Assembly (NCBI GenBank): GCA_963769025.1
Contig: CAVYKI010000003.1
Coordinates: 1,120,001 to 1,184,000, forward strand
Length of the DNA stretch: 64,000 bases
Source: an uncultured Verrucomicrobiae bacterium
Lineage (GTDB): Bacteria; Verrucomicrobiota; Verrucomicrobiia; Chthoniobacterales; Chthoniobacteraceae
Reading direction: 5' to 3'
The position numbers were made by a program, and so were the translations under genes. The notes below the pieces were generated by a model. It saw only the letters and a program-made list of their open reading frames with translations. It did not search any database and had not been told where the DNA came from. Each line of letters starts with the position of its first letter. Position 1 is the stretch's first letter. This document shows, piece after piece, positions 21,343 to 23,853 of this stretch.

Positions 21343-22373
21343 TTACTTGGTCGGGACCGTGGCGATCGTCTGCAGGATGCGGCTCGGCGATCTTGTACGG
21401 ATCGCCCTGCGAGTTCGGACGGCGGTCTTCGAGGTAGCCCTTGTAGCCGTTGTTCACGAAGCTGTGCGGGACGCGGACGGACGCGCCGCGGTTGGCGACG
21501 CCGTAGTTGAATTTGTCGATCGACTGCGTCTCGTGCAGACCGGTGAGGCGCAGGTGATTGTCCGGGCCGTACACGGCGATGTGCTCGTTCTTGTACTTGT
21601 CGAACGCCGCCATGAGCGCCTCGAAGTATTCCTTGCCGCCGACTGTCGCGCATGTGCTCGGTCGAGAAGTTCGCGTGCATGCCGGAGCCGTTCCAGTCGA
21701 CGTCCTTGCCGAGCGGCTTGCAGTGGAAGTTCACGTCCACGCCGTACTTCTCGCAGAGGCGGATGAGGAGGTAGCGGGCGACCCACATCTCGTCGGCGGC
21801 GTTCTTGGAGCCCTTGCCGAAGATCTGGAATTCCCACTGGCCCTTCGCCACTTCGGCGTTGATGCCTTCGTGGTTGATGCCGGCATCGAGGCAGAGGTCG
21901 AGGTGCGTGTCGACGATCTCGCGGGCGATGTCGCCGACGTTCTTGTAGCCGACGCCGGTGTAGTATTCGCCCTGCGGCGGCGGGAAGCCGCCACCGGTCG
22001 GGAAGCCGAGCGGCACGCCGTCCTGGTAGAGGAAATATTCCTGCTCGAAGCCGAACCAGGCGCCGGGATCATCGAGGATGGTCGGCGCGGGCATTGGTCG
22101 GATGCGGGGTGTCGCCGTCCGGCATCATGACTTCGCACATGACGAGCACGCCGTTCTTCCTGGTGCGTGTCGGGATAGACCGCCACGGGCTTGAGCATGC
22201 AGTCCGAGCTCTGGCCCTCGGCCTGCCGGGTCGAGCTGCCGTCGAAGCCCCACATCGGGAGTTCTTCGAGCTTCGGGAAAGCTGTCGAATTCCTTGATCT
22301 GGGTTTTGCCGCGGAGGTTGGGGACGGGCTCGTAGCCGTCGAGCCAGATGTATTCGAGTTTGTATTTCGCCAT
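21343..22373 (-). CDS. glnII: Glutamine synthetase type II (frameshifted)
   Basis: [84 protein letters not shown]; about 340 aa. Confidence 0.93.
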
Positions 22374-22484
22374 TGTTGTGTTGGTTGTGGTGTCTGTTTT
22401 TGAGCGGCCTGCGCAATTTGTGACCGCTGATGTTGTTGGTTTTTACCCTGTTACAGGGACGGGTTCGGGCGCGTCTCAGAATTG

Positions 22485-22501
22485 AGCAATTGGAGTGCCA
22501 A
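22485..22501 (-). promoter_or_regulatory. Sigma-54 promoter of glnII
   Basis: Minus strand TTGGCACTCCAATTGCT, near-perfect TGGCAC-N5-TTGCW, about 110 nt upstream of the start. Confidence 0.85.
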
Positions 22502-22622
22502 ATTTGAGACTAGCAGGTCTGATACCACCAAATTCCAGCCCACGGTCAAGGCGGGCGATCCGCAAAAATACGTCAGCGATCCATGCTTGCCGGATCGTGC
22601 CGGATGCGCAGGCTCTGGCGAA

Positions 22623-23031
22623 ATGCGTGACGTCAAAGACACACTGCGGGCGCTGGTGCGAATCAGCTACGATGGCCGCGTCTTCAAGACGTTCCGCGGA
22701 CCGAAGGCGGAGGAGCGTTTCGACACCGAGGTCCGCGTGCTGCGGCATCTGGAAGAACGCGGCTGCCCGTTCGTCCCGCGTCTGCTGGAGGTCCGATCCG
22801 GAGGAACTCCGCATCGTGACCACGAGCTGCGGCTCGCGCGTCGAACATCTCGACGATGCGCGCGTCCCCGAGCTTTTCGCCGAACTCCTCCCCTACGGCG
22901 TCCGCCACGACGATGCCGACATGCGCAACGTCACCTACCGCCAGTCCGACGGGCGCTTTTGCCTGATCGATTTCGAGTTCGCCACCATCCTGCCCGGCTT
23001 TGAGTCCCCTCCCGATGGAGCCGCCACCTAA
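22623..23031 (+). CDS. Minimal protein-kinase-like protein (about 135 aa; one frameshift near 22792)
   Basis: RVFK (beta3 Lys), FDTE (helix C Glu), HDDADMRN (HxDxxxxN), LIDFE. Confidence 0.75.
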
Positions 23032-23853
23032 AACCGCCCCGCGCCTCCGCTGGTCCGGCCTCTCCGATCGCGGCAAGGTGCGCAAGAACAACGAGGACTC
23101 GTTCCTCGGCCTGCAGTTCGACGCCCACGAGGCGCACTTGCTGGGAAAATTCGGCGAGGCCTCGCTGGAAAAGGCCGATTTCGCTTTCGCCGTGAGCGAC
23201 GGCATGGGCGGCGCGATGGCGGGGGAATTTGCCAGCCGCATCACGGTGGAAAAGATCACGCGCCTCCTGCCGCCGCGCGTTCAAGCAGGCCGCGAGCGGC
23301 ATGGAGACGGGCTTCGCGCGACGTGCTCGCCGAGCTCTTCACCCAGATCCACCGGGCGCTCACCTTCCTCGGCGAGAGCTACGAGGAATGCGCGGGCATG
23401 GGCGCGACGCTGAGCCTGTGCTGGTTCACGCCGGGCTGGATGTATTTCGGCCACGTCGGCGACAGCCGCATCTACTACCTGCCCGCGGCCGGAGGCATCA
23501 AACAGCTCAGCGAGGACGACACGCTACGTCGGCTGGCTCTTCCGCAACGGCAAGATCAACGAGCGCGAGGCGCGCAACCATCCCGCGCAAGACTGTCCTC
23601 CAAAAGGCGCTCGGCGCGGGGCATCGTTCGTCGACCCGCAGGTCGGCGCGCGTCGGCTTGTGAAAGCGGCGACATGTTCCTGCTCTGCACCGATGGCGTG
23701 ATCGACGGCCTCTTCGACAGCGGCATCGCCGACTGCATCCGCGCGCCCGAGCCCGCCGACGCCGCGCTCAGTCCCGCGCAGCGCCTCGTGAAGGCCGCCC
23801 TCGAACGCTCCGGCCGCGACAACACCACCGCGATCGTCGTCGAGGTGCTCTGA
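23015..23853 (+). CDS. PP2C/PPM-family Ser/Thr phosphatase (frameshifted)
   Basis: [37 protein letters not shown]; overlaps the kinase stop. Confidence 0.9.

Follow-up and report, generated by a model that had tools for sequence, protein, structure and literature searches.

In this study, we analysed a window of 64,000 nucleotides (nt) of DNA from an uncultured Verrucomicrobiae bacterium of the Chthoniobacteraceae (GCA_963769025.1, contig CAVYKI010000003.1, 1,120,001-1,184,000). In it glnII, which encodes a type II glutamine synthetase (GSII), stands divergent from an overlapping pair of genes for a very small kinase-like protein, here called the mini-kinase, and a PP2C phosphatase. Across one class of the Verrucomicrobiota the mini-kinase and this type of GSII are inherited together almost without exception. 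In many other bacteria, type I glutamine synthetase (GSI) is controlled by GlnE through adenylylation; bacterial GSII is described as being governed chiefly at the level of expression, with no counterpart of GlnE that we know of. We propose that the kinase and the phosphatase act as writer and eraser of a phosphate on GSII and so take the place of GlnE, which we consider probable, if only by a little. A previous sequence-only reading of this DNA had put forward such a pair; every genomic prediction of it held (linkage, co-inheritance, scarcity of GlnE, invariant catalytic residues and a sigma-54-type box), and the activity and the substrate are what we infer from these patterns.

Linkage and co-inheritance with GSII

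The window's glnII, of a rhizobial-like clade, lies on the minus strand (22373 to 21343; 341 aa in relatives, with five single-base insertions here). An intergenic region of 249 bp (22374..22622) separates it from the mini-kinase gene on the plus strand (22623..23031; 135 aa, core ~125), which is followed by the PP2C/PPM phosphatase gene (23015..23853, plus strand; seven single-base indels here, intact in relatives). From its putative start codon, the latter overlaps the end of the mini-kinase gene by 17 bases, so the earlier description of glnII and an overlapping two-gene unit across about 250 bp was accurate. The synthetase (~340 aa) keeps the catalytic and flap residues of GSII and matches 4bax at E 5.9e-90, with the yeast and plant enzymes next; its score lies below the cut-off of NF041605 (363 vs 500). 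The same divergent glnII/kinase locus is present in the cultured Chthoniobacter flavus Ellin428. Downstream analyses used intact proteins of relatives, namely P0003 for the kinase, P0124 for GSII and P0125 for PP2C.

The genome-level survey covered the Verrucomicrobiota, with a kinase counted as present at E<1e-30 and a GSII of this type at >=70% identity. In a phylum sample of 300 genomes besides the window's own, the kinase was found in 55 and the identical 55 carry the GSII, with 239 genomes having neither; the 55 do not include weak kinase matches (E ~6e-4) in G225 and G324, nor a second weak match in G212. A partly overlapping class sample of 201 genomes gave 78 with both, 121 with neither, one with GSII only and one with the kinase only, and in one of these two discordant genomes GSII is split over contig ends. 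Among 60 closer relatives, 40 have both genes, 17 have neither and three are discordant, these being 63-85% complete; the 44 relatives that are >=90% complete divide into 29 with both and 15 with neither. Both genes are missing from two genomes (96% complete) of the genus to which the window belongs, and joint absence is also seen inside otherwise positive families.

In 49 of the 55 positive genomes the two genes are divergent neighbours, 112-428 bp apart with a median gap of 227 bp. The suspected linkage of the mini-kinase to glnII was thus borne out by neighbourhood analysis, together with near-perfect co-inheritance. Within the 1.5 kb fetched around 29 relatives' loci, glnII was divergent in 19. 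A further 80 loci had glnII divergent within 1 kb in 54 cases and adjacent in the same direction in two; it was absent from the fetched DNA in 21, and three loci were too short. Kinase and GSII trees correlate in a mirror-tree comparison made without a species-tree control (r 0.74), and 12 of 23 supported kinase splits are shared with GSII. Judging by the named records among its matches, the kinase family is one of Verrucomicrobiota, closest in Chthoniobacterales, and no kinase match was present in 72,556 plasmid and 50,697 phage records. Two records titled Dongiaceae and Kapaibacterium (L107, L121) group with Verrucomicrobiota as search centres, and their titles look wrong.

Most cases are physically linked, and joint gain and loss would be expected if the three genes were simply passed on as one block around a common promoter region and the target of the pair were unrelated. 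One IMG/VR contig (L231, 52 kb), on which GSII, mini-kinase and PP2C all lie on the same strand, is in line with such a block. However, co-occurrence persists in the six of 55 positive genomes that hold kinase and GSII at separate places, nitrogen genes recur at the loci, and the pair is absent from 12 of 12 examined genomes with type III glutamine synthetase (GSIII); we regard an unrelated target as most unlikely. The viral-collection contig itself could represent a piece of the host genome or else a nitrogen module that was captured.

The spacer also holds a possible link to nitrogen metabolism. A putative sigma-54-type -24/-12 box (TGGCAC-N5-TTGC, 22486..22500, minus strand), recognised by what we take to be the consensus for such boxes, faces glnII. 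Over 105 spacers including the window's, the strict pattern occurred 36 times toward glnII and once toward the kinase (0.1 and 0.2 in shuffles), and a relaxed pattern 95 times vs 4 (0.5 and 0.9 in shuffles). Of 80 loci, 24 have a PII-family gene within 6 kb and 10 have an AmtB gene (one representative of each was Pfam-confirmed).

These neighbours also raise the question of whether the target of the pair is some other protein of nitrogen control (PII Ser49, GlnD, a sigma-54 activator, AmtB or GOGAT), so that GSII is reached only indirectly, as in the cyanobacterial PII/PphA cycle. The PII motif RGSEY, which contains Ser49, was present in 5/5 kinase-positive genomes examined, and Ser49 of cyanobacterial PII is described as phosphorylated in some species, with PphA known as the phosphatase and the kinase unidentified (PMC4285133). 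RGSEY was, however, also present in six of ten kinase-negative genomes examined, which argues that the kinase tracks GSII and that PII does not explain its distribution. PII moreover has Tyr51, and weak GlnE-family matches in ~940-aa frames probably represent GlnD. An indirect route of this kind is therefore unlikely in our view, and a direct action on GSII is preferred. Five PII paralogues near glnII (L062:1618-1953, L064:1582-2025, L069:1571-1906, L070:1540-1875 and L079:1582-1917) have a changed T-loop without RGSEY and Tyr51.

The distribution of other glutamine synthetases was compared in 80 chosen genomes (55 kinase-positive, 25 kinase-negative), with types inferred from how long the frames are and how they score. 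GlnE with two repeats occurs in 2/55 positive vs 6/25 negative genomes, GSI-beta-like genes in 3/55 vs 6/25 and GSIII-length frames in 0/55 vs 12/25, while other glutamine synthetase-like genes were seen in 12 positive vs 2 negative genomes. GSII is the only type in 40 of the 55 positives, and in the window's own genome (83% complete) it is the only PF00120 match. Altogether, the class seems to use three alternatives, namely GSI with GlnE, GSIII, or GSII with the kinase/PP2C pair.

A stand-alone kinase core and its phosphatase

In the window, one extra base (~22792-22794) divides the mini-kinase into parts of 57 and 78 residues, which together make 135 aa. It has the beta3 Lys K22 (22686..22688), the helix-C Glu E36 (22728..22730), a catalytic loop H95-D-D97-A-D-M-R-N102 (22906..22929) and the metal-binding D116-F-E118 (22969..22977), all on the plus strand, and stops 17 residues after DFE. 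In 89 of 89 paired homologues K22, E36, H95, D97, N102, D116 and E118 are invariant, as are K5, D17, R32, T66, G70, T104 and Y105, and the catalytic loop is always H-D/E-D. R101, the Arg at D+4, is present in 88/89; such an Arg is presumably tyrosine-kinase-like, but it is also seen in CK2 constructs, and therefore no Ser/Thr/Tyr specificity is claimed. The kinase of about 135 aa with Lys, Glu, HxDxxxxN, DFE and an early stop was thus described correctly, and its short open reading frame (ORF) is kept: it is unbroken, ends at about the same place and is followed by PP2C in 29/29 relatives' loci, and encodes 125-156 aa in 80 of the 80 further loci. These intact short ORFs rule out a truncation artefact or a pseudogene. 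With sequences clustered at 90% identity, the kinase matches at least 7,986 groups; at 50% identity it matches 474 representatives (E<=0.001). Divergent relatives of 125-145 aa and a tandem two-domain form are found among P0315, P0336, P0345, P0354, P0380 and P0388, and phage clusters (Atlas) contain similar kinases of 142-171 aa.

An AlphaFold2 model of the monomer alone (predicted local distance difference test, pLDDT, 91; predicted template-modelling score, pTM, 0.85) shows an N-lobe of five strands with helix C, and a C-lobe reduced to a single helix, the two loops for catalysis and metal binding and one final strand, after which the tail is disordered. Conservation and model both stop near residue 123-125, and neither contains a Hanks-type activation segment with APE or subdomains VIII-XI. 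As modelled, the mini-kinase is a truncated, stand-alone bilobed kinase core of ~125 residues with all catalytic motifs. A protein-kinase-like bilobed core fold is supported by 457 PDB matches at E<=0.001, and the solved chains among the listed fold matches are all longer (>=160 aa). In a Pfam scan of P0003, Pkinase was not among the matches and APH was the best. Against the Bud32 model TIGR03724 the kinase scores 21.6 vs a curated cut-off of 125 bits, and the 'Bud32' labels among its matches are therefore unsupported.

Some of these matches point to a small-molecule or RNA kinase of the ArkI/APH type, acting for instance on an inhibitor of glutamine synthetase or on a regulatory RNA and for that reason tied to GSII. 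The top Foldseek match is the archaeal RNA kinase Ark1 (E 3.9e-7, template-modelling (TM) score 0.67, 173 aa), the best Pfam match is APH, and ArkI likewise has DFE and no subdomain VIII (PMC9095486). The VIA-align Z of Ark1 (11.9) nevertheless ties, within the margin of the tool or nearly so, with those of RIO2 (12.4), RIO1 and BRAF (11.9 each), Bud32 following at 10.9. The mini-kinase also keeps the catalytic Asp where ArkI has HGQ (PMC9095486), ends before the basic helices, has a near-neutral net charge (median -2, range -6 to +2) and is paired with a PP2C and not with KptA. We consider such a substrate very unlikely and continue with the reading of a kinase that acts on protein.

The phosphatase gene lies within 400 bp of the kinase gene in 77 of 80 loci, the others being two contig ends and one locus without it. 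Its metal-site motifs (N-E-D, D-G-M-G-G, G-D-S-R, D-G and D-N) have their core residues in 122-123 of 123 sequences. PP2C matches PF13672 and NF033484, the latter (Stp1/IreP) being its best NCBIfam match at 179.3 bits, under the cut-off of 230. The best 120 longer kinase homologues comprise 115 kinase-PP2C fusions and five N-terminal extensions; no longer conventional kinase behind the short ORF was found among them. The fusion occurs in four genomes of one genus, and fusion records include the cultured Opitutus sp. GAS368, Oleiharenicola lentus and Lacunisphaera. Among the best 150 of the 474 representatives, 59 near-full matches include 15 fusions and five with tails >55 aa, which resemble low-complexity or frameshifted sequence. 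The sequence-only reading had held that a fused or a longer conventional protein would count against it; fused proteins do exist, as kinase-PP2C fusions that favour the idea, and the longer conventional kinase does not appear among these homologues.

RIO1, RIO2 and Bud32 work largely as ATPases, and the protein could in principle bind GSII or aid its assembly or turnover as an ATP sensor, through a RIO- or Bud32-like ATPase activity or other transfer chemistry, with PP2C acting on a transient phospho-state. It lies near these proteins in fold, all of its fold matches are longer, it lacks a Gly-rich loop and a C-lobe, and the fusion is modelled, in a run without a control, at pTM 0.78 with a linker of pLDDT <50. 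Set against this, an obligate PP2C partner whose metal-binding residues are intact implies that there is a phosphomonoester stable enough to need removal, and neither the catalytic Asp nor the Asn varies. We consider an ATPase role quite unlikely, and a phosphate-transferring kinase is retained as the preferred reading.

As deposited, the three genes contain single-base indels (five in glnII, one in the kinase gene and seven in the PP2C gene), at the same positions against each of three relatives. The PP2C, previously called complete, is not so in this assembly because of its seven indels, and is intact in relatives. These 13 indels are probably long-read errors, because ProRS in the same assembly also has two, GSII and PP2C are also split in another 5-contig, 83%-complete genome (G033), the extra glnII bases are absent from contigs of related organisms, and the short GSII pieces tested are 89-100% identical to relatives. 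The density is higher at the locus (13 in ~2.3 kb vs 2 in ~1.5 kb of ProRS), so that decay of the locus, confined to this strain, is also conceivable. None of the sequencing runs searched contained this strain (best share 0.20), and RNA contigs matched glnII-like DNA of other organisms, which has no bearing on expression in this strain.

The glutamate flap as a candidate site

In the proposed mechanism, the mini-kinase would transfer phosphate from ATP to protein, with GSII across the spacer as the likely target, and PP2C would take the phosphate off again, so that these bacteria would have a rapid off/on control of glutamine synthetase like the one that GlnE provides to users of GSI. The candidate sites are T276, T281 and S283 in the glutamate flap (codons T276-D285 at 21515..21544, minus strand), where a phosphate would block closure of the flap over the active site, as at mammalian T301. 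GSII would be switched off when ammonium is in excess and on when it is limiting, a direction assumed because of the behaviour of GlnE and of the mammalian enzyme; in the limiting state, transcription of glnII would also rise through the sigma-54 box. Since the kinase lacks the C-lobe platform for peptide binding, it may recognise one folded surface of its substrate, which would fit a single dedicated target.

The flap (276-283) was placed by alignment, in which E280 corresponds to maize E297, T276 to human T301 and S283 to N308. D285 aligns with a hinge residue, 302, described for Medicago glutamine synthetase (PMC3975887). According to PMC6536897, phosphorylation of flap T301 by PKA lowers the activity of the mammalian enzyme. 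Rhizobial GSIIs, which are 74-80% identical to the verrucomicrobial ones over most records, provide a comparison, and a quick tree places eight alphaproteobacterial sequences (rhizobial and related, L191-L198) inside the clade of the verrucomicrobial ones (Shimodaira-Hasegawa-like approximate likelihood ratio test, SH-aLRT, 91-98 for the enclosing branches). The sharpest differences lie at L278, Q282, S283, D285, E262 and R330, which are present in 90/90 kinase-adjacent GSIIs; the flap residues and R330 recur in 30/30 of a second, partly overlapping set. The eight have K at 278, A at 282, P, A or S at 283 (S in 2/8), N, H or D at 285 and R330 in 1/8. A second GSII copy in G224, away from the kinase, has Ala at 283. 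According to PMC5127829, rhizobial GSII is controlled chiefly through its expression, with adenylylation acting on GSI. If GSII is the substrate, the chances that the flap is the phosphorylation site seem to us, from these alignments, about even.

Several observations weigh against a switch acting on GSII and its flap. The genomes in our counts are related and hence not independent, and adjacency is lost in 6/55 genomes and in 21/77 informative loci. Two kinase-positive genomes also carry GSI with GlnE. Twelve GSIII genomes have neither GlnE nor the kinase, and in six genomes outside the class a distant GSII (57-61%) is the sole glutamine synthetase, with neither kinase nor GlnE found; therefore, a glutamine synthetase can do without such a switch. 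For the kinase itself, no GxGxxG loop was found, strands 1 and 2 being connected by K-D/N-T-x-R-A, and its fold neighbours RIO, ArkI and Bud32 are tied, one of them an RNA kinase. At the flap, Q282 and S283 are also present in the six distant GSIIs, and Ser stands at 283 in the yeast and Drosophila enzymes, so the motif may simply be ancestral, while T276 and T281 are invariant everywhere and thus do not discriminate between kinase-linked and other GSIIs. The eight rhizobial sequences form one clade and therefore amount to about one event, and the kinase was not matched in rhizobial plasmid and chromid records, the chromosomes not having been searched. In G139 (L147-L149), the kinase stands alone on one contig and a PP2C is divergent from a GSII with a rhizobial flap on a second; a third contig carries a second GSII with the verrucomicrobial flap.

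A more specific version of the proposal is that the ~125-residue kinase uses the GSII ring in place of its missing C-lobe, phosphorylates the flap and forms, with a PP2C that in Opitutus and its kin is joined to it as one bifunctional enzyme, a third gate on glutamine synthetase and a phosphorylating counterpart to GlnE, in a clade where rhizobial GSII nests after loss of the switch. We put this forward tentatively and find it rather doubtful as a whole.

Other genes of the window lie outside this module. A Ser/Thr kinase of full size (15097-17973, minus strand), in which a membrane segment is combined with an F5/8 type C domain and DUF1349, was not seen as a member of the conserved glnII/kinase/PP2C module. 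A transporter of the major facilitator superfamily (18009-19469, plus strand) carries an insert of two EF-hands after its first membrane helix (Pfam EF-hand over cut-off), which is also found in the relatives L063 and L074; it is possibly a calcium-gated transporter. At 27512-30332 (minus strand), a small Ras-like GTPase gene is flanked by one for a Roadblock/LC7 protein and one for a protein of 573 aa whose C-terminal domain is of the Roadblock type, a module which we take to be MglAB-like.

Relation to known systems

A full-text search, in which the older biochemistry of rhizobial GSII is largely not covered, returned no paper that deals with these kinases or reports that a bacterial GSII is phosphorylated. 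The apparent novelty lies in the size of the kinase and its apparent dedication to GSII, the kinase fold, PP2C and covalent control of glutamine synthetase being of known kinds. In 40 of 55 positive genomes GSII is the sole glutamine synthetase found, and the proposed pair would be a way to shut it off after an ammonium pulse. If the proposal is true, it would show how small a protein-kinase fold can be and still work, and thousands of sequences labelled 'Bud32' or 'RdoA' would need new names. With cultured strains as a source, three small proteins are enough to put the control of GSII to the test.

Operons of a Hanks-type kinase and a PP2C are known as PknB/PstP, PrkC/PrpC and Stk1/Stp1. As in these, the kinase gene adjoins that of a PPM phosphatase, and our PP2C has its best NCBIfam match in Stp1/IreP; the mini-kinase, however, is about half the size and is without GxGxxG, the activation segment, subdomains VIII-XI, a membrane anchor and a sensor. 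The cyanobacterial PII/PphA system shares an eraser of PP2C type in nitrogen control (PphA being, as we take it, of that family) and a Ser49 that is also present in verrucomicrobial PII, but in the genomes examined the kinase tracks GSII and not Ser49. RIO1/RIO2, Bud32/PRPK, OspG and NleH1 are similar in fold (Z 9.5-12.4) and have a reduced C-lobe, although the matched chains are longer at 160-269 aa. The tRNA 2'-kinase ArkI/Ark1 (PDB 8yv4/8yv5, 7vnx) is likewise a small kinase fold with DFE and no subdomain VIII. It differs (PMC9095486) in its HGQ, subdomains IX and XI, a basic C-terminal YKR helix, a length of 171-216 aa and KptA as eraser, whereas the mini-kinase has HxD, ~125 aa, a near-neutral charge and a PP2C partner, and the region of the YKR helix is absent.

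Control of mammalian glutamine synthetase by PKA at Thr301 concerns an enzyme of the same GSII class, whose T301-N308 flap maps to T276-S283 (PMC6536897 for the phosphorylation of T301). PKA is a general kinase with no gene-linked, dedicated pair; here both the site and the modification are predicted. The closest parallel in purpose is GlnE on GSI-beta. Both would be reversible covalent off-switches, writer and eraser can share one polypeptide in each, and their distributions within the class are largely complementary. GlnE uses nucleotidyltransferase domains to place AMP on GSI, in contrast to the kinase fold and PP2C described here, for which phosphate is the predicted modification and GSII the predicted target.

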